Source of the DNA: a virus
Lineage: Duplodnaviria > Heunggongvirae > Uroviricota > Caudoviricetes
DNA: 18,724 nt
Reading direction: 5' to 3' (one strand)
Virus record (IMG/VR): IMGVR_UViG_2734482772_000011
Coordinates: 1 to 18,724 of that record
Positions 3,682 to 18,724 of the stretch are shown piece by piece (within the stretch, counting starts at the first letter, position 1; every line of letters begins with the position of its first letter). The position numbers and the translations under genes were made by a program. The notes under the pieces were generated by a model. The model saw only the letters and a program-made list of their open reading frames with translations. It searched no databases and was not told the DNA's origin.

Positions 3682-4343
3682 GCGCCTTCTCCCTGTACCT
3701 GAATCAATGTGAGATTTCCGCAGAACACTGCCCCAGTATCGATATACATCTGGTTGGCAAATTTGAGTGGTTTCACTGCTGGCGTATGACCAAAGATAAA
3801 CGTGTCCGCGCCTTTAATTTCTTTAACGATCCCGTCTTGTGAGTTGCTGATTCGTTCGCGGTTCCAGATTACCTGCTGATGATCAACTGGCTTTCCAAAT
3901 TCGTATTCGTCACAAGGATAATCGGCGTGGCAGATGACATATTTTTTACCTTTGCTCACCAGTTCGATGATTAACGGAAGTTCTTCTGCTTTATGGGCAA
4001 GAGCTTTAGCCAGAATTTCTTTGTCGTAATCGAGATTAAAGAACCAGACACCGCCATTAAGCAGCCAGTGATTGACGTTTCCACGCTCTGATAAGCCATC
4101 AATCATCATGTGCTCATGGTTTCCACGTACAGCTCTGAACCAGGGGAATGTGATTAATTCCAGGCATTCAACGTTCTCTGCACCACGATCAACCAAATCG
4201 CCCACCGAGATAAGCAGGTCTTTTTTGTTGTCGAATCCAATCGTATCCAGTTTGTTCATCAGGTTCGTGTAGCATCCGTGCAGATCGCCAACTACCCAAA
4301 TATTTCGGTATTTGCTGCCATCAATTCTTTCGTAGATATTCAT
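3672..4343 (-). CDS. ninI: Ser/Thr protein phosphatase (lambda NinI/Orf221 type)
   Basis: Track ORF 223 aa; metallophosphatase motifs GDLHG, GDLVDRG, GNHE; position after ninG as in lambda. Confidence 0.9.
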
Positions 4344-4951
4344 GCAGCCTCACTTCTGCTGTTTCGCAGTTTTTTAAGTTTCTGTTGATACTCCGCCTTG
4401 ATGGCCCTGCACTCTTCGACAGTCCAGCGATGGCGGTTATGGTTTGATTCGATTTCGTCTACTGCTTCCTGCCCGATGCGGTTAATCAGTTCGACGCGAT
4501 ACGGAACGAGATTTCCGCTTTTATGTTGGTTGCACACCACGCATTGCTTGTGAATATTGCGTTCATCAAATCGGAGTTGAGGCGCCGCAGCAGTTGTCCG
4601 GTAATGCCCGGCATCCCACTGAGCAGACGTGAGCGTTCCGCACGAGATACATGGTAAGTCGCGGTCTCTTTCTCTGATGAAGGCGTTTACGGCTTGTTGG
4701 GCTTGTTTAATCCAGTAACTGCGGGGCTTTAAGGCGAGTTTTCGAATCTTAAGTTTATCTTTCTGTTTCTGCTCCTCTCGTCGTCGTTTCTTCTCTGCTG
4801 CCTTTTCCGCTTTTTCGCGTTCTTTGCTTCGTCGTTCGAGTGCTATCTTGGTTCCACACTCTGGAGAGCACCACCACTGATTGGCGAATGCAGGGTGAAA
4901 CCATTCCCGACATTCATCGTTTTTACATCGTCTTCGCGCTGGTTTAGCCAT
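4340..4951 (-). CDS. ninG: NinG (Rap) recombination protein
   Basis: Track ORF 203 aa; Cys-rich N-terminus ([12 protein letters not shown]...WWCSPECG) and lysine/glutamate-rich stretch typical of lambda NinG by recall. Confidence 0.9.
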
Positions 4952-5004: not shown

Positions 5005-5511
5005 TTATGGTCTGCCATGGTTTTCATGAAAACCCAGTTCTTTTTCTGCCCTCTTCCTTTCTGCAATAGCGTCAATGATGCTAGCAAATATTCCAAGATA
5101 TTTGGTGCGCCCATCTACGCATATATTCGCAATCCACTTGCATCTCTCTTTATTGAAATACACTCCAGTCACTCCTGACGAATTGGTTATTTTTCTCTTT
5201 TGGTTCTGTGCATTCTGTTGGTGTGTAACCAATCGAAGATTAGATAGCCTATTATCTGACCTTACTCCATTTATATGATCAATTTTATACCCTAATGGAA
5301 TCTCACCATTATTTATCATCCATATAACGTGGTGAGCATAAGTAATTACACCATCGATAGTTAACATCCTATAACCATCACTCCTAATGTAACCAGCAAC
5401 ACTGCCAACCTTAACATTATTAGAAGGAGACACTTTCCATCTAAGTACACCTAAAACATCATCATATGATAATTTATTTCTTAATTCGTCTATGTTGCTT
5501 ATATTTCTCAT
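5005..5511 (-). CDS. HNH homing endonuclease with AP2-like DNA-binding domain
   Basis: Track ORF 168 aa; HNH_3-like segment (YKIDHINGVRSDNRLSNLRLVTHQQN) followed by AP2-like segment (SGVTGVYFNKERCKWIANICVDGRTKYLGIF); AT-rich by eye relative to flanking nin genes. Confidence 0.8.
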   Translation of the reverse strand: MRNISNIDELRNKLSYDDVLGVLRWKVSPSNNVKVGSVAGYIRSDGYRMLTIDGVITYAHHVIWMINNGEIPLGYKIDHINGVRSDNRLSNLRLVTHQQNAQNQKRKITNSSGVTGVYFNKERCKWIANICVDGRTKYLGIFASIIDAIAERKRAEKELGFHENHGRP

Positions 5512-5832: not shown

Positions 5833-5972
5833 ACGTCCTCCTTTTCCTGCGGTAGTGGTAACACCCCTGTTGGTGTTCTTTCACATCGGAGACACCATCG
5901 ATTCCAGTAAGGTTGATTTGGTCGGAAGCGGTTATCTTCTTTGCATTCACCGCACCGATAACATCGCATCAT
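5799..5972 (-). CDS. ninD: NinD (small Cys-rich protein)
   Basis: Within track ORF 5799..6032; start taken at [11 protein letters not shown] (ATG 5972-5970) which overlaps ninB stop as ATGA; Cys-x2-Cys pairs. Confidence 0.7.
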
Positions 5973-6409
5973 GCTGCCCGATCTCCCCATCTCGCTTTCC
6001 ACTCCAGAGCCAGTCGCGCTTCGTCTGACCACTTAACGCCACGCTCTGTACCGAATGCCTGTATAAGCTCTAATAGCTCCGCAAATTCGCTTACACGCAT
6101 CCTGCTGGTTGACTGGCCTATTACCACAAAGCCATTCCCGGCAAGGTTAGGAACAACGTCCTGCTGCTTTAATGCTGCGGTAAACACACACTTCCAGCTT
6201 TCTGCATCCAGCCAGCGACCATGCCATTCAACCTGACGAGAGACGTCACCAAGGCAAGCCCAAAGCTTTCGGTTTTGGTCTAAGCTGCGGTTGCGTTCCT
6301 GAATGGTTACTACGATTGGTTTGGTTGGGTCTGGAAGAATTTGCTGTACTGCGTGAATAGCGTTTTGCTGATGTGCTGGAGATCGAATTTCAAAGGTTAG
6401 TTTTTTCAT
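5969..6409 (-). CDS. ninB: NinB (Orf-family recombination mediator)
   Basis: Track ORF; start taken at [21 protein letters not shown] (ATG 6409-6407) with SD GAGGGA 5 nt upstream; matches lambda NinB by recall. Confidence 0.9.
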
Positions 6410-6422
6410 GACTTCCCTCTCC

Positions 6423-6457
6423 CCCAAATAAAAAGGCCTGCGATTACCAGCAGGCCT
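6423..6457 (-). terminator. intrinsic terminator between helicase and ninB (tR2 analog)
   Basis: 8-bp perfect stem AGGCCTGC/GCAGGCCT at 6434-6457, followed on the - strand by UUUUUAUUU. Confidence 0.6.
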
Positions 6458-9636: not shown

Positions 9637-9752
9637 ATGCCCTCCATAGTAACCTCGAATAAAAAATACAATATGTACTTTCCAAATACAAGCAAAAATA
9701 CACATTGTGCATGGATGGTTCCAGTACAGAGCGTAATAATAAGGACATGAAA
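9637..9752. promoter_or_regulatory. OR region (divergent PR/PRM with operator sites)
   Basis: Intergenic between divergent cro and cI; near-palindromic sites TACAATATGTAC (9667-9678) and TACACATTGTGC (9699-9710); the first recurs near pL. Confidence 0.6.
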
Positions 9753-10406
9753 ATGAAATGGTATGAACTGGCTAGATCCAGAATGAAAGAGCTCGGCATA
9801 ACTCAAGAGAAGTTAGCCGAAGAGCTAGGTATGACGCAGGGTGGGATTGGACACTGGTTGCGCGGATCTCGTCATCCATCTCTTAGTGATATTGGTGTGG
9901 TGTTTAAATACCTTGGTATTGATAACATATCATTCAACCACGACGGGACATTTTCACCTGTTGGCGAATACTCATCGGCCCCAGTTAAAAAACAATATGA
10001 GTACCCTGTATTTTCTCATGTTCAGGCTGGGATGTTCTCTCCAGAACTCAGAACCTTTACCAAAGGCGATGCGGAGAGATTGGTAAGCACAACCAAAAAA
10101 GCCAGTGACTCTGCATTCTGGCTTGAGGTTGAAGGTAACTCAATGACCGCACCAACAGGTTCCAAACCCAGTTTTCCTGACGGGATGTTAATTCTGGTTG
10201 ACCCTGAGCAAGCTGTTGAGCCCGGCGATTTCTGCATAGCCAGACTTGGTGGTGATGAATTTACCTTCAAGAAACTGATCAGGGATAGCGGTCAGGTGTT
10301 TTTACAACCACTAAACCCACAGTACCCAATGATCCCATGCAATGAGAGTTGTTCCGTTGTGGGGAAAGTTATCGCCAGCCAGTGGCCTGAAGAGACGTTT
10401 GGGTGA
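9753..10406 (+). CDS. cI: CI repressor (HTH + LexA/S24-like autopeptidase)
   Basis: Track ORF; start at ATG 9753 (SD AAGGA 7 nt upstream); N-terminal HTH ([20 protein letters not shown]), C-terminal S24 motifs (GNSM ... FKKL). Confidence 0.9.
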
Positions 10407-10472: not shown

Positions 10473-10853
10473 ATGAATGATCTTGATAAGAAAAAGTACG
10501 ACCAAGTTATTGATTCTGTGAACTTCGCCCTTAGATCGTTGTCAGAGTTATTCGAAGCCCATGGAATGCATGGGATGTATGATCTAACGAATCCAAGCCT
10601 TGATGAGCTAAAATTAGTGTTTACAAGGATGAAAAACGGTGTTGACTCTATTGCTCAAAGCTTTGAGCACATGGTAGAGACAGCAAAGGATATGGATGCC
10701 GCAAGTGCAAGCATAAATGTTATGAACATCAAACAAGGATTGATGTATGCTGAATCACTATTGCTTGCTGTAGAGAAATTAGACTATGATAAATGTGTGG
10801 AAGCAAATACGCAGATAAAAACCCACGATCTTCCACCAACCCAATGGCCTTAA
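10473..10853 (+). CDS. hypothetical protein, AT-rich accessory gene in the rexA position
   Basis: Track ORF 126 aa co-oriented with and downstream of cI; A/T-rich codons by eye; acidic, no obvious TM segment; no family recognised. Confidence 0.6.
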   Translation: MNDLDKKKYDQVIDSVNFALRSLSELFEAHGMHGMYDLTNPSLDELKLVFTRMKNGVDSIAQSFEHMVETAKDMDAASASINVMNIKQGLMYAESLLLAVEKLDYDKCVEANTQIKTHDLPPTQWP

Positions 10854-11366: not shown

Positions 11367-11464
11367 GATCACCCAACCACATGAGCTGTGGGATGCAATG
11401 CCGAAGCAACCGTCTCAGGAGGAGCTTCGAGATTGCATCACCAAAGTTTATTCGGGAGGAATCT

Positions 11465-11787
11465 ATGTCCAGAAAAACAGAATTTAAAGGCACCTCAGCT
11501 TCTCGTCGTAGAGCTCGTCGCGCAAACCTGCAAAGTCAGGAGGCGATTAGCTCCGACAAGCTACACAGACCAACCCCCTCTCGAGTGGTCTTGCAATGCA
11601 AGCGCAAACCAGCAATGAGAGCAGAAGTAATAACACTGACAACGTTGACCAGAAAATATGAAGGCTCAACTTGTCTTCCAAATGTAGCTCTTTACGCGGC
11701 AGGCTACAGGAAATCAAAACAACTGACAGCAAGGTGACTTGTGTTGGTCGCCAGAAAATAAAATTAGGCAGCAAACCACTTATTTGA
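11465..11787 (+). pseudogene. N: N-like antiterminator interrupted by an apparent 1-bp deletion (or sequencing error)
   Basis: ATG 11465 (SD GGAGG) opens frame with arginine-rich motif TSASRRRARRANLQ and stops at TGA 11735-11737; the conserved N C-terminus VTCVGRQKIKLGSKPLI is in the -1 frame, ending at 11787; adding one A to the A4 run at 11716-11719 fuses them into a 107-aa protein. Confidence 0.6.
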
Positions 11788-11795
11788 GGTGATAT

Positions 11796-12245
11796 ATGGA
11801 AGAACAAGCAAACAAGATTCTCGTAGAACTATTGCAAAAAGCCAGTAATGGAATAGACGCGGCTGTTTCATTTAGCCAGGCACAGATTCCTGATGTTATC
11901 CATCAGTTGCTGCTATGGAATATGGTTGACAGTCTGATTAAAACATTAATAGCCATTCTAACAATCCCACTGGTTTTCTGGTTTATGAAGAAGCAGTGCC
12001 AAAGAGTTGAGATAGGTAAAATCGGTAATGAAGGATATTCATGGGAGAAGGGAAATCCCAAATACAGGCCGACAATGGTTTGGGATAGCAAAGGTGATAT
12101 TGATCTTCTTATCATGCCATTGGTTGGAGTTTTGACTCTGTGGGGGATTTTTATTATTGGTGCAGTAACCAATATGACTTGGTTAAAAATTTGGCTGGCC
12201 CCAAAGCTTTACCTTATCGAATATGCAGCATCATTGGTTAAGTAA
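11796..12245 (+). CDS. hypothetical two-TM membrane protein (sieB-position accessory gene)
   Basis: Track ORF 149 aa; SD GAGGTG upstream; two hydrophobic segments (LIKTLIAILTIPLVFWFM and LLIMPLVGVLTLWGIFIIGAV); AT-rich by eye; between N and tL1-like terminator. Confidence 0.6.
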   Translation: MEEQANKILVELLQKASNGIDAAVSFSQAQIPDVIHQLLLWNMVDSLIKTLIAILTIPLVFWFMKKQCQRVEIGKIGNEGYSWEKGNPKYRPTMVWDSKGDIDLLIMPLVGVLTLWGIFIIGAVTNMTWLKIWLAPKLYLIEYAASLVK

Positions 12246-12418: not shown

Positions 12419-12484
12419 ATATGCATACCAATAACGCTTCACTCGAGGCGTTTTCGTTATGCAATCAAATATAAGGAGTTACCC

Positions 12485-12619
12485 ATGATGCACTTTCAGC
12501 TCGCGGGTAGCGGCGTCATGTCCGCTTTCTACCCGCACGAATCTGAATTATCACGCCGAGTTAAACAATTAATCAGAGCAGCAAAGAAACAACTGGAGGC
12601 GTTATGCGCAATGAAATAG
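12485..12619 (+). CDS. cIII: CIII-like protein (FtsH inhibitor)
   Basis: In-frame part of track ORF 12380..12619 downstream of the terminator; ATG 12485 with SD AAGGAG 6 nt upstream; AGSGVMSAFYPHESELSRRVKQLIRAAKKQL resembles the lambda CIII helix region by recall. Confidence 0.55.
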   Translation: MMHFQLAGSGVMSAFYPHESELSRRVKQLIRAAKKQLEALCAMK

Positions 12620-12756
12620 CCATTAATCACCAGATGCTTCGTGCTGCACAGAACAAAGCAGTAATAGCCCGATTTATTGGTGATTCAAAAATGTGGCTTG
12701 AAGCAAATAAAGCGATGAAATCAGCTATCAACCTTCCGTGGTATCGCAGGAAATGA
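12604..12756 (+). CDS. Kil-like small protein
   Basis: Hand-translated 50 aa: MRNEIAINHQMLRAAQNKAVIARFIGDSKMWLEANKAMKSAINLPWYRRK; start overlaps cIII end; FIGD.KM motif and position recall lambda Kil (low certainty). Confidence 0.4.
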   Translation: MRNEIAINHQMLRAAQNKAVIARFIGDSKMWLEANKAMKSAINLPWYRRK

Positions 12757-12837
12757 GTTTTACAGATAACTGGTCAGACGAAGAATTCATTCGTCAGATG
12801 AAAGAAATGCTCAATCAGCACAAAGAACAGGAGAAAG

Positions 12838-13149
12838 ATGATGATTCTGACTCTGAATGATAAGCGTGAAATATCGCAAATAATCGCAAGTTTTACTGAT
12901 GAAGATTACGAACGAATCAACAGTGAAGTTGATCGCCTCTGCAAACGTTGCGACCCAATAAGCGAAATGCTTCGCTCATATAAACCAGATGAACACACTA
13001 AGGACGCTATCGACTGGCTGGAAGATGATGACTGTAACTATCAGGAAAAAGCCGCTGAATGGTTCTGGGATGCAATAACCGAAAGAGTTAAGGCTGAATA
13101 TGCCTTCGCAATATTCAAACGCAGACACATTTTTGGAGAAGCTGCATGA
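12838..13149 (+). CDS. hypothetical protein upstream of recombinase
   Basis: Track ORF 103 aa, acidic, ends 4 bp into the RecT start; no family recognised. Confidence 0.5.
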   Translation: MMILTLNDKREISQIIASFTDEDYERINSEVDRLCKRCDPISEMLRSYKPDEHTKDAIDWLEDDDCNYQEKAAEWFWDAITERVKAEYAFAIFKRRHIFGEAA

Positions 13150-14057
13150 GCAATATCGTTGAATTCGTTAAACAGCAGGAGCAGTTATTCTGCGGAGCAT
13201 TGACTGAACAGACGGTGACATGGGCTAAGGAAAGCCAGTTTGCAATTCAGTATTTCCAGAAAAACGATTACCTGGCTAAAACAGCACTGGCAAATCCAAC
13301 CAGCGCACAGAACGCCATCATCAATGTTGCGGCGATCGGCATCACCTTAAACCCGGCCAGCAAACTGGCTTATCTGGTTCCGCGCGACGGCATGGTGTGC
13401 CTTGATATCAGTTATATGGGATTGCTCCATATTGCAATGGAGTCTGGTGTTATCTCATGGGGTCAGGCAAAACTTGTTCATGCTAACGATACCTATGAGT
13501 CAAACGGGCTTGATAAAGCACCAACCCATAAATACAACGCCTTCGGTGATCGTGGTGATATCGTTGGCGTTTACTGCACAGTTAAGACGCCAGCAGGTGA
13601 TTATCTAACGGAAGAGATGAGTCTGGCTGAAATTGAGGCTGTAAGGAAAACAAGCAAGGCGGCCTTCAGCGATAAAGGACCATGGGTAAATCACTGGAAT
13701 GAGATGGCGCGAAAGACGGTCGTAAAGCGTGCAAGCAAGTATTGGCCTAAGGCATCACGTCTTGATAGTGCTATTCACGTACTAAACGAAGAAGAAGGTG
13801 TGTGGACTGAACCAGTTATGCCGCACAAATCAGAGGAAGATATCCGCGAAGATGAACGGAAACGCCAGCAGGAAATAACGGATAAAGCACAACTTCTTTG
13901 TGATGAAATGGCTCAGGCAGAAAACATGGATGATTTGAAGCGATATTTTGCAGAAGCATATCGCCTGACATCTGGAATGAAATTGCAGCAGAACGTACAA
14001 GCCATTTACGCAGAATGCAAAGCGAAACTGGAGGTTGCCAGTGAGCAAACTGTATGA
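13146..14057 (+). CDS. recT: RecT-family single-strand annealing recombinase
   Basis: Track ORF 303 aa; segment KGPWVNHWNEMARKTVVKRASKYWP resembles the RecT core (GPWVTHWEEMAKKTAIRR) by recall. Confidence 0.8.
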   Translation: MSNIVEFVKQQEQLFCGALTEQTVTWAKESQFAIQYFQKNDYLAKTALANPTSAQNAIINVAAIGITLNPASKLAYLVPRDGMVCLDISYMGLLHIAMESGVISWGQAKLVHANDTYESNGLDKAPTHKYNAFGDRGDIVGVYCTVKTPAGDYLTEEMSLAEIEAVRKTSKAAFSDKGPWVNHWNEMARKTVVKRASKYWPKASRLDSAIHVLNEEEGVWTEPVMPHKSEEDIREDERKRQQEITDKAQLLCDEMAQAENMDDLKRYFAEAYRLTSGMKLQQNVQAIYAECKAKLEVASEQTV

Positions 14058-14523
14058 AATTGCCAATGAATACGCAAAGCTGATGGATTCAGATTTAGAA
14101 CCAGAGATGATTGCTGACACAATAGAAGGCATGGAAGGAGAATTTACCGATAAAATAGAGCAACTTCTTGCCATTATTAAAAATGAATCTGGTTATGCTG
14201 AATGCCTCAAGGAAGAGGCAAAGTCACTAAATGAACGAGCCGCAGTAATTCAAAATAAGATTGACAACATTATGGCGTATATAGCGTCATCGCTTGAAAT
14301 GGTTGGCAAGAAAAAGATTCGAGCAGGTATTCACCAGGTAACAATCCGCAAACCGTCAGAAACTGTAGAAATCATCGACTCAAGCGCCATTCCTCCTGAA
14401 TACGTTGAGTTTGAAACGACAATTAAAGCCGACAAGTTGGCAATCAAACACCAACTAAAAGCAGGAATAAATATCCCCGGCGCTCAACTCAAAGTTGGGA
14501 AACCTTCACTTCTTATCAAATAA
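14041..14523 (+). CDS. Gp157-family protein (Siphovirus Gp157-like)
   Basis: Track ORF; GTG 14041 with SD GGAGG 6 nt upstream preferred over track TTG 14035; family call from recalled pattern and recombinase adjacency, not verified. Confidence 0.5.
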   Translation: MSKLYEIANEYAKLMDSDLEPEMIADTIEGMEGEFTDKIEQLLAIIKNESGYAECLKEEAKSLNERAAVIQNKIDNIMAYIASSLEMVGKKKIRAGIHQVTIRKPSETVEIIDSSAIPPEYVEFETTIKADKLAIKHQLKAGINIPGAQLKVGKPSLLIK

Positions 14524-14534
14524 CGGTATCGCCT

Positions 14535-14849
14535 ATGAAAAAGACTCCATGGGAGAAATGGGAAGTCGATTTCTTACGCGAAGTAGCGGCGACAATGCCA
14601 GTTGAAGTTATCGCTGAAAAACTGGAAAGGACTGAAAAAGCAGTAATGGCGAAAGCAACAAGGATTGGCGCTGACATTGTTAGCCGACTTCGTGGAAGAC
14701 GATGGACAAGAGCCGAAGTATCACTTTTCGGTAAGTTCTCCGCAGAAGAAATAGCAATTGCAACCTGCCGCTCAATTTATTCAGTAAGAGCTATGCGATA
14801 CAAGCTAAAAAAACTCGATGAAGAAAGAGCAGGCATACGAATAAATTAA
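14535..14849 (+). CDS. hypothetical protein with internal tandem helical repeat
   Basis: Track ORF 104 aa; two ~35-aa repeats each starting with W and acidic residues (WEKWEVDFLREVAATMP... and WTRAEVSLFGKFSAEEIA...). Confidence 0.5.
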   Translation: MKKTPWEKWEVDFLREVAATMPVEVIAEKLERTEKAVMAKATRIGADIVSRLRGRRWTRAEVSLFGKFSAEEIAIATCRSIYSVRAMRYKLKKLDEERAGIRIN

Positions 14850-17328: not shown

Positions 17329-17454
17329 GAGTGGAAATAAAGAAATCACACCGCCTCACACTCGGTGAGGCCTGTTCATTGCTCAATGATATCCAGACCT
17401 ACCATCGCCGCATCAATGCGGCTTTTTCTTGCGTGTAATTGCGGAGACTTTGCG

Positions 17455-17673
17455 ATGTACTTGACACTTCAGGAGTGGAACGCTCGCCAGCGACGCCCAA
17501 GAAGCCTTGAAACAGTTCGTCGATGGGTGCGCGAATGCAGGATATTCCCTCCTCCGGTTAAGGATGGAAGAGAGTATCTGTTCCACGAATCAGCGGTAAA
17601 GGTTGACTTAAATCGACCAGTAACAGGTAGCCTTTTGAAGAGGATCAGAAATGGGAAGAAGGCGAAGTCATGA
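17455..17673 (+). CDS. xis: excisionase Xis
   Basis: Within track ORF 17365..17673; from ATG 17455 reads MYLTLQEWNARQRRPRSLETVRRWVRECRIFPPPVKDGREYLF..., matching lambda Xis by recall; 3' end overlaps int start. Confidence 0.9.
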   Translation: MYLTLQEWNARQRRPRSLETVRRWVRECRIFPPPVKDGREYLFHESAVKVDLNRPVTGSLLKRIRNGKKAKS

Positions 17674-18724
17674 GCGCCGGGATTTACCCCCTAACCTTTA
17701 TATAAGAAACAATGGATATTACTGCTACAGGGACCCAAGGACGGGTAAAGAGTTTGGATTAGGCCGAGACAGGAGGATAGCAATCACTGAAGCAATACAG
17801 GCCAATATTGAGTTACTCTCAGACAGCGGACGCAAATCACTAATAGACAGAATTAAAGGCGGTGACGCAATCACTCTTCATGTGTGGCTTGACCGATATG
17901 AAACAATCCTCACCGAAAGGGGGATCAGGCCGAAAACTCTACTCGACTACGCCAGCAAAATCAGGGCAATCCGAAGAAAATTGCCGGACAAACCGCTCAC
18001 TGACATATCAACGAAAGAAGTGGCAGCAATGCTAAACACCTACGTAGCAGAAGGTAAAGCAGCTTCCGCAAAATTAATCAGGTCAACCCTTGTTGACGTT
18101 TTTCGTGAAGCAATAGCCGAGGGGCATGTGGCAACGAATCCGGTAACGGCAACCCGTACAGCAAAGTCAGAAGTAAGGCGCTCAAGGCTGACAGCTAATG
18201 AGTATGTCGAGATTTACCATGCAGCCGAACCTCTCCCTATCTGGCTAAGACTGGCGATGGATTTGGCCGTCGTTACAGGGCAGAGAGTCGGCGATTTGTG
18301 CAGAATGAAATGGTCAGACATAAACGACAACCATCTTCACATTGAACAGAGTAAAACAGGGGCTAAACTCGCCATTCCGCTAACGCTAACGATTGACGCG
18401 CTCAATATCTCATTGGCTGATACACTACAGAAATGCAGGGAGGCCAGCAGCAGTGAAACTATAATCGCATCAAAGCATCACGATCCGCTTTCCCCGAAAA
18501 CAGTATCAAAGTATTTTACAAAGGCGAGAAATGCATCTGGACTCTCATTTGATGGAAACCCGCCAACATTCCATGAACTGCGTAGCCTGTCAGCGAGGCT
18601 ATACCGGAACCAGATTGGCGATAAGTTTGCTCAACGTCTTCTCGGGCATAAATCAGATTCAATGGCGGCGCGGTATAGGGACAGCCGTGGACGGGAATGG
18701 GACAAAATTGAAATCGACAAATGA
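17651..18724 (+). CDS. int: tyrosine integrase (lambda Int type)
   Basis: Track ORF 357 aa, MGRRRSHERRDLPPNLYIRNNGYYCYRDPRTGKEFGLGRDRRIAITEAIQANIEL... matches lambda Int by recall; gene ends at the window edge. Confidence 0.95.
   Translation: MGRRRSHERRDLPPNLYIRNNGYYCYRDPRTGKEFGLGRDRRIAITEAIQANIELLSDSGRKSLIDRIKGGDAITLHVWLDRYETILTERGIRPKTLLDYASKIRAIRRKLPDKPLTDISTKEVAAMLNTYVAEGKAASAKLIRSTLVDVFREAIAEGHVATNPVTATRTAKSEVRRSRLTANEYVEIYHAAEPLPIWLRLAMDLAVVTGQRVGDLCRMKWSDINDNHLHIEQSKTGAKLAIPLTLTIDALNISLADTLQKCREASSSETIIASKHHDPLSPKTVSKYFTKARNASGLSFDGNPPTFHELRSLSARLYRNQIGDKFAQRLLGHKSDSMAARYRDSRGREWDKIEIDK

Follow-up and report, generated by a model that had tools for sequence, protein, structure and literature searches.

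How does a lambdoid phage that encodes a RecT-family annealing protein, with no recognisable exonuclease or Gam beside it, deal with the host RecBCD nuclease, and what fills the places of the missing proteins in its recombination module? The question is raised by an 18,724-nt stretch of viral DNA (IMG/VR record IMGVR_UViG_2734482772_000011; the window, by which we mean the whole 18.7-kb stretch that was analysed), a lambdoid prophage whose early-left (pL) operon lies on the + strand and contains, in order, cIII, kil, an open reading frame (ORF) of 35 amino acids (aa), an acidic ORF of 102 or 103 aa, recT, a gene for a Gp157-family protein and one for a Mu gp9-like protein. A first-pass annotation of the window had suggested that the acidic ORF might encode a nuclease inhibitor or a recombination accessory factor. 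We find it very probable that its product is related to lambda Gam, although highly diverged from it, and forms a third lineage, by sequence, of the Gam fold. The picture of the whole module that we consider reasonably probable is one in which an HK140-type module combines this Gam-fold RecBCD inhibitor with a RecT that is paired with Gp157, and has no resection nuclease of its own.

The 103-aa ORF is conserved and represents a real gene. It was listed from the ATG at 12838, but its true start is likely to be the second ATG, at 12841, as the sequence AGGAG (12829-12833) lies 7 nt ahead of it and the homologues are 102 aa long; the gene would then occupy 12841-13149 on the + strand and encode the 102-aa protein known as gp42 in phage HK140. 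A profile search of 1.84 billion proteins with hmmsearch found 52 representatives of clusters formed at 50% identity, and almost all of these are about 100 aa long. Neither single-sequence nor profile queries gave a meaningful match in Pfam, NCBIfam or the PDB sequences, and the protein belongs to PHROG 3486, which is labelled 'unknown function'. It is acidic, with an isoelectric point (pI) of 4.65 and 24 Asp and Glu residues vs 15 Lys and Arg, and so is its family (median pI 4.65, median net charge -9), for which the comparable pI values are 4.99 for GamS and 4.70 for GamL. In nearly all members the last residues are E-[A/V]-A, and the stop codon after them shares bases with the ATG of the next gene (13135-13149 in the window); a phi80-type GamL from another of the compared loci (L018, 2825-3112) ends in the same style, with GEVA. 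This conservation probably reflects the Shine-Dalgarno sequence (GGAG) of the downstream gene and ATGA coupling to it rather than protein function.

The relationship to Gam is seen in the predicted structure. AlphaFold2, run template-free with 36 diverse family members, returned a confident model with five helices (predicted local distance difference test, pLDDT, 90.3; predicted template-modelling score, pTM, 0.77) that has the layout of GamS, in which a long N-terminal helix is followed by two short helices and a long C-terminal helix. When this model was used in a structure search, Gam was the single top match among 48,164 chains, with a root-mean-square deviation (rmsd) by far the lowest of the leading matches, at about 15% identity in the structural alignment.

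Part of the relationship may also be traceable in sequence. An hhalign comparison of the 102-aa family with a lambda Gam alignment gave a score of 22.6 (probability 18%, P 0.0013, 26 columns confidently aligned), and 200 column shuffles gave a mean of 11.3 with a standard deviation (sd) of 1.9 and a maximum of 16.7, so that the real score is 5.8 sd higher than the mean and was reached by none of them. The aligned stretch in the 102-aa protein, which lies opposite lambda Gam, is TKDAIDWLEDDDCNYQEKAAEWF, and the most conserved motif of the family, DDDCNYQEKAAE, pairs with lambda Gam D107-E118. In the window this motif is D62-D-D-C-N-Y-Q-E-K-A-A-E73, encoded at 13024-13059 (+ strand), and D62, N66, E69 and E73 align to lambda D107, E111, E114 and E118. 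These four lambda residues take the place of DNA phosphates and form ion pairs with RecB K268, K288, R297 and R255/K256/K828, respectively (Table 1, PMC9836394), and most of the RecB residues that are contacted also touch DNA phosphates (PMC9836394). Across the 36 members, D64 is present in 27, position 66 is acidic in 23, the aromatic position is Y or F in 28, the Gln is kept in 32 and position 69 is E or D in 30. The acidic residues that contact the RecB arm are represented in the 102-aa family by its C-terminal motif; the N-terminal helix contacts did not align. A pairwise BLASTP search of the 102-aa protein against the Gam of phage Dewey gives an E of 1e-4 across the motif.

Gene position points in the same direction. 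The 102-aa gene sits between kil and the annealase gene, which is the slot of gam in lambda and also that of arf in P22. When the window is compared with phage Dewey, DNA homology extends to 12759, through kil (93.5%), and begins again at 13144, from RecT onward (96%), and the 384 bp between these points (12760-13143) are the sole part that cannot be aligned. In that slot the Dewey cassette carries a gam whose product is 63% identical to lambda Gam, ahead of a 97%-identical RecT, and kil (12604-12756, + strand; PF06301 1.7e-20, phrog_2055 1.2e-35) forms the left edge of the exchangeable cassette. Other RecT-Gp157 modules have a PF06064 Gam (locus L017) or a PF28165 GamL (L018) in the same slot. 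Distant relatives of the 102-aa protein, at 25-40% identity, are all found at the head of recombination modules, in which the partners are RecT and YqaJ, DUF3799 and RecT, an unknown 167-aa protein and YqaJ, or RecT and Gp157. Two of these relatives are preceded by 57%-identical homologues of phi80 Mog (L005, 2256-3260; L008, 2773-3732); in phi80 itself Mog ('modifier of Gam'), which is the antitoxin for GamL, precedes gamL.

Two further small proteins turn up around these cassettes. One, of phrog_1273 (PF27050, Phage_P22_Y8K6), accompanies gam-type cassettes and is located between kil and gam in Dewey (L013, 1958-2200) and between a 102-aa family member and RecT in L009 (4306-4629). The other is the 167-aa protein just mentioned, which belongs to phrog_21613, has no Pfam match and lies between the family member and YqaJ (L006, 723-1226; L007, 477-980). 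Its position is one in which an annealase would be expected, and it could be a single-strand annealing protein that has escaped recognition.

Several results weigh against the assignment to Gam. At E values up to 10, PF06064 matches neither the window protein nor a single one of the 36 family members, in a scan in which true Gams score 2e-34; the precomputed Pfam annotation of family members is blank, and the family profile did not retrieve Gam from the PDB sequences. The hhalign probability of just 18% and the 26 confidently aligned columns belong here too, and against a single lambda Gam sequence the probability is 3%. The family's N-terminal helix has no detectable sequence similarity to that of lambda Gam, whereas lambda Gam and phi80 GamL share this helix (84.5% probability over 44 columns), which in lambda Gam plugs the RecB single-stranded DNA (ssDNA) channel. 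When hhalign was used to compare the family with the GamL proteins of phi80 and L018, the score of 10.8 equalled the shuffle mean, and the window has no Mog homologue. Finally, should Gp157 (considered below) likewise protect ends against RecBCD, the module would be unusual in having two anti-RecBCD functions: in the text of a 2025 survey of lambdoid phages, just HK639 is listed with two anti-RecBCD genes (PMC12315714).

Membership of the GamL family itself was rejected at the sequence level, as hhalign gave 5% or nothing against phi80 GamL, the protein falls into phrog_3486 rather than phrog_1050, and precomputed Pfam hits for the family members include none to PF28165. With the points on both sides considered, we infer, with good support, that the 102-aa protein binds and inhibits RecBCD, and the earlier suggestion of a nuclease inhibitor gains from the fold, the contact motif, the gene position and the cassette replacement. 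The accompanying statement that no Gam was evident is correct for plain sequence searches, in which PF06064 matched no ORF from cI (9705) to int (18724), but it does not survive in a wider sense because the 103-aa ORF itself has the Gam fold. Gp157, for its part, is already regarded as a 'MuGam'-type anti-RecBCD protein.

As the first-pass annotation had noted, an exonuclease is indeed not evident in the operon: a Pfam scan of the ORFs from cI to int detected none of the exonuclease domains Exo/YqaJ (PF09588), RecE or DUF3799 (PF12684). The full annotation of HK140 lists no recombination exonuclease either. The 2.9-kb region that contains the module is 97-98% identical in phages HK140, mEpX1, Gally, Kapi1, Louie and 683R2 (megablast), and the module was found in 264-302 of 5,426 complete E. 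coli genomes (about 5%). In the 2025 survey, which covered 325 lambdoid phages, HK140 is assigned a type-4 RecT-family annealase (SAP-4) and a MuGam anti-RecBCD protein (PMC12315714) and is described as being without a phage nuclease and without an SSB (PMC12315714), and its text reports that the nuclease is missing from 84 of 246 Enterobacteriales modules (PMC12315714). Because HK140 has been described in this way and so many other modules likewise have no nuclease, a nuclease-less RecT module is ordinary in lambdoid phages, and the oddity that had been implied for the module in the window disappears. The recombination module itself is a known type, that of HK140; what is new is the reading of the 103-aa ORF.

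The gene downstream of recT encodes a Siphovirus Gp157-family protein, which confirms its first identification (PF05565 1.6e-37, 129.4 bits vs a cut-off of 28.6, covering profile positions 1-162 of 162; phrog_253 2.6e-53). It was listed from the TTG at 14035, and its true start is likely to be the GTG at 14041, because GGAGG lies 6 nt upstream and the homologues are 160 aa long, so that the gene would span 14041-14523 (+ strand) and encode 160 aa. Gp157 occupies the position that exo has in phi80. Its family carries the label 'Mu Gam-like end protection' in PHROGs, and Gp157 is classed as 'MuGam' in the text of the 2025 survey (PMC12315714). In our hands a Mu Gam-like identity is weakly supported. 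Sub-threshold matches to the Mu Gam profile PF07352 were obtained for 5 of 29 Gp157 members (best E 0.0022), and the weak hhalign alignment to six Mu Gam sequences is collinear over 117 columns, with a score of 20.8 (P 0.017) that is 3.5 sd over the mean of the shuffles (13.1 +/- 2.2) and is exceeded by their maximum of 21.5. The AlphaFold2 model of Gp157 (pLDDT 80.5) consists of a long helix (residues 21-88) and a small beta/alpha C-terminal part, and in PDB searches with it neither Ku nor Mu Gam came up as a structural match that would indicate a Ku-like fold. The literature that we found on Gp157 together with RecT consists of just passing annotations.

A detail in favour of the label is provided by the next gene (14535-14849, + strand), which encodes a 104-aa basic protein of pI 10 with two internal, helix-turn-helix-like repeats. 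This is a homologue of Mu gp9 (E8), as judged from BLASTP (E 5e-5) and from phrog_323, which gives 2.8e-20 for the 104-aa protein and 5.2e-29 for Mu gp9; a gp9 homologue thus stands beside Gp157 just as gp9 stands beside gam in Mu. The same ORF is annotated in phage Gally as 'Anti-RecBCD protein 1 (Abc1-like)', an identity that we rejected, as BLASTP against P22 Abc1 produced no alignment at E <= 100; tblastn of the ORF found no match in P22.

The RecT-family single-strand annealing protein (13146-14057, + strand, 303 aa) was recognised correctly from the outset: PF03837 matches at 2.7e-32 (112.4 bits vs a cut-off of 24), TIGR00616 at 82.4 bits vs 52.65 and phrog_148 at 1.8e-92, and it is of the 'SAP-4' type in the scheme of the survey (PMC12315714). 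Its core (residues 1-215) is 59% identical to that of phi80 RecT/Bet, and its acidic C-terminal tail (residues 216-303, encoded at 13791-14054 on the + strand; pI 4.75) is unrelated to that of phi80. The window tail matches solely those RecTs that precede a Gp157 gene (L009, L017 and L018; E 1e-26 to 1e-44). It does not match the tail of phi80 RecT, a protein with a core of the same type that is followed by Exo, whereas the phi80 tail matches a RecT with an unrelated core that is followed by YqaJ (L008, E 3e-15). In this small sample, four against two (the loci include L009, L017, L018, L008 and L014), the RecT tail co-varies with the downstream gene, Gp157 vs Exo/YqaJ, irrespective of how the cores are related. 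That the tail follows the downstream partner and not the core suggests that Gp157 is the physical partner of RecT, in place of the exonuclease, and the tail may well be a docking domain for Gp157.

It is necessary to ask whether these observations could be explained otherwise. Even with a Gam fold, the 102-aa protein could keep the acidic duplex-mimicking surface and be redirected by its unrelated N-terminal helix to another target, such as SbcCD or a restriction or defence nuclease, or it could inhibit RecBCD in a manner unlike that of lambda Gam. This reading seems to us somewhat unlikely. It has enough probability to be taken seriously, since the N-terminal half is unlike that of lambda Gam and GamL, which have exactly that part in common, the C-terminal motif alone is common to the protein and Gam, and Gp157 is already a candidate for end protection within the module. 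Yet the shared motif is precisely that of the RecB-arm contacts, the gene swaps with lambda-type gam and with GamL in one cassette, and relatives are preceded by Mog homologues in the way that phi80 gamL is. We consider it quite improbable that the protein is no nuclease inhibitor but an Arf-like accessory factor of recombination, acting on the annealase or its partner, as a RecT loader or chaperone would. The gene does always head recombination modules, it is in the arf slot of P22 and its translation is coupled to that of the next gene, through ATGA and the family-wide E-[A/V]-A that encodes the Shine-Dalgarno sequence of that gene; but across relatives the gene that follows belongs to different, unrelated families (RecT, a DUF3799 nuclease, the unknown 167-aa protein and Y8K6), which argues against a specific partner among them, the protein has no similarity to Arf, and the fold and contact motif indicate Gam.

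A more sceptical view would be that the resemblance to Gam is a chance one among small, helical, acidic proteins and that the function has nothing to do with nucleases or recombination. To this we attach very little weight, given that Gam was the best of all the chains searched and had an rmsd far below those of the other leading matches, that the profile score stands so far outside the column shuffles, and that synteny, cassette replacement and linkage to Mog are each independent of the structure. Nor, in our judgement, is there any appreciable likelihood that a nuclease of the module's own is concealed in Gp157 or the 104-aa protein. Such an idea could draw on the location of Gp157 at the phi80 exo position and on a RecT tail that co-varies with Gp157 as Beta-type tails do with Exo, but neither protein matches a nuclease family in Pfam, NCBIfam or PHROGs, the Gp157 model, a long coiled-coil helix with a small beta/alpha part, has no nuclease-like structural match, and the 104-aa protein is Mu gp9-like, with its two helix-turn-helix-like repeats.

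A model for the module can be proposed in which the 102-aa protein is a divergent Gam. Most likely it would act as a dimeric acidic DNA mimic that fills the DNA-end site of RecBCD at the RecB arm, and linear phage DNA and recombination intermediates would thereby be spared from degradation. RecT would anneal single-stranded DNA while its module-specific C-terminal tail is probably docked on Gp157, which in turn is probably a DNA-end-binding, Mu Gam-like protein and not a nuclease. As the module encodes no resection nuclease, the ssDNA would have to be supplied by nucleases or helicases of the host or arise at replication forks. It is tempting to go further and speculate that these components make up a nuclease-free, end-tethered annealing system, in which a Gam-fold lineage that retains the surface mimicking DNA at the RecB arm but has a new N-terminal helix works with RecT and with Gp157 docked to the RecT tail. 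We view this extension as unlikely, but if it were true, the new N-terminal helix could shift the target range or let the protein block RecBCD without tripping guards such as the retrons Ec48 and Se72, and Gp157 would be a general non-nucleolytic partner of phage annealases. Proteins of the Gp157 family are widespread next to annealases of the Erf, Sak4 and RecT types, and the phages concerned infect Gram-negative as well as Gram-positive bacteria.

The assignment offers a testable function for a gene labelled 'hypothetical' in about 5% of E. coli genomes and in HK140, mEpX1, Kapi1 and Gally, and it would extend the Gam-fold anti-RecBCD proteins by a third sequence lineage. If such a lineage has gone unrecognised, phages that surveys of recombination strategy have scored as having no lambda-type inhibitor, or as having MuGam only, may be misclassified. 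RecBCD inhibitors trigger retrons and other guard-type defences and potentiate quinolones, and a divergent Gam would therefore be a useful probe of guard recognition. The co-variation of the RecT tail with Gp157 points to a concrete function for the Gp157 family, which is poorly understood, and indicates candidates for co-expression in recombineering with the RecT of the window.

The remaining features of the window are those of a lambdoid prophage. All of the pL ORFs listed in the first-pass annotation lie on the + strand where it had placed them, apart from the slight corrections to the starts of the 103-aa ORF and Gp157, and its cIII-like and kil-like genes are genuine, the former (12482-12619, + strand) on the basis of PF08134 (2.2e-30) and phrog_550 (2.9e-13) and the latter on the basis of the PF06301 match given above. 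The module genes are tightly packed, with ATGA overlaps at kil/35-aa ORF and at 103-aa ORF/RecT and an overlap of 17 nt between RecT and Gp157. Upstream on the + strand are the repressor gene cI (9705-10406; Peptidase_S24 and helix-turn-helix domains) and N (11381-11737; PF25694). At its far end the same strand carries genes for excisionase (17446-17673) and integrase (17651-18724). Two conserved proteins without a Pfam match are encoded in the pL operon, one of 126 aa between cI and N (10473-10853, + strand; phrog_16322) and one of 149 aa after N (11796-12245, + strand; phrog_3054), the latter having hydrophobic stretches suggestive of a membrane protein.

The - strand of the left part carries the pR genes, namely a cro-like gene, cII, an O-like gene and genes for a DnaB-type helicase, NinB, an HNH protein, NinG, a phosphatase and Q. 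Two of these products, which are encoded in the nin region outside the module, are concerned with recombination: the NinB/Orf recombination mediator (5969-6427, - strand; PF05772 1.3e-54) and the NinG/Rap structure-specific endonuclease (4340-4951, - strand; PF05766 5.1e-91). Neither is a resection exonuclease. The HNH endonuclease gene between them (5005-5511, - strand; PF13392 1.2e-19) is probably a mobile insertion. Chi sites (GCTGGTGG) number 0 in the window vs 0.5 expected by chance, and in the 40.7 kb of HK140 (L024) there are 4 vs 1.4 expected, all on one strand and in structural genes; these counts are too low to be informative on reliance on RecBCD.

The 35-aa ORF that precedes the 102-aa gene (12753-12860, + strand, from the ATG at 12753; phrog_17766 1.1e-15, phrog_2123 8.3e-12) has a history of its own. 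Its initial ~21-28 residues are common to the post-kil gene in at least 93 lambdoid phage records (tblastn), and this shared start is the N-terminus of P22 Arf and of the 'recombinase' phrog_2123, in which positions 1-21 of 52 are matched. The direct similarity to P22 Arf is confined to the SDEEFI motif (10 residues aligned, pairwise E 0.008). Since the ORF diverges after the shared N-terminus, it has the look of a mosaic junction, and it is probably a remnant of such a junction or a small accessory peptide. In one database protein (P0025) the N-terminus of the 35-aa ORF is joined to the C-terminal half of the 102-aa protein, and the location of the join at DDD codons suggests a microhomology deletion.

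How, then, does this module compare with systems that are already understood? It resembles the Arf-Erf-Abc1-Abc2 module of P22 in being lambdoid and in having an annealase and no phage exonuclease, and the N-terminal SDEEFI motif of Arf is also found in the 35-aa ORF. It differs in having no homologue of Abc1 or Abc2, and the strategy is likely to be one of blocking RecBCD rather than of hijacking it as P22 does. The positional analogy to Abc that had been drawn for the 103-aa ORF does not hold, as abc1 and abc2 are located downstream of erf in P22 and not upstream. With Mu Gam and its Ku-like family (PF07352), Gp157 has in common its length class, the layout of a helix followed by a beta/alpha part, a weak alignment that includes the motifs R-x-P-S-x-S-V and K-x-A-I, and an adjoining gp9-like gene, but it is under the Pfam threshold and lacks a structural match to Ku or Mu Gam.

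The 102-aa protein is comparable to phi80 GamL (PF28165, phrog_1050) in size, acidity and its slot ahead of a RecT of the same core type, and two of its distant relatives follow Mog homologues as gamL follows Mog; GamL has itself been reported to have a Gam fold despite its different sequence, according to the text of the 2025 survey (PMC12315714). The two differ in that profile similarity is not detectable, that Mog is absent from the window, and that GamL has the N-terminal helix of lambda Gam while the 102-aa family has the C-terminal motif. The differences from lambda Gam (GamS; PF06064; PDB 2UUZ, 5MBV) are the lack of a match at the level of hidden Markov models, the low structural identity of about 15% and the unrelated sequence of the N-terminal helix, and the likenesses are those of a protein of about 100 aa that is acidic and all-helical, has Gam as its best structural match, shares the motif D-D-D-x-x-[FY]-Q-E-x-x-A-E with its RecB-arm contacts, and is encoded in an interchangeable cassette between kil and the annealase. 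HK140 gp42, which is this same protein, is not counted as an anti-RecBCD gene in the main text of the survey (PMC12315714). Closest of all is the HK140-type Rec module, to which the module in the window belongs, with ~98% DNA identity to its counterparts in HK140, mEpX1, Gally and Kapi1.

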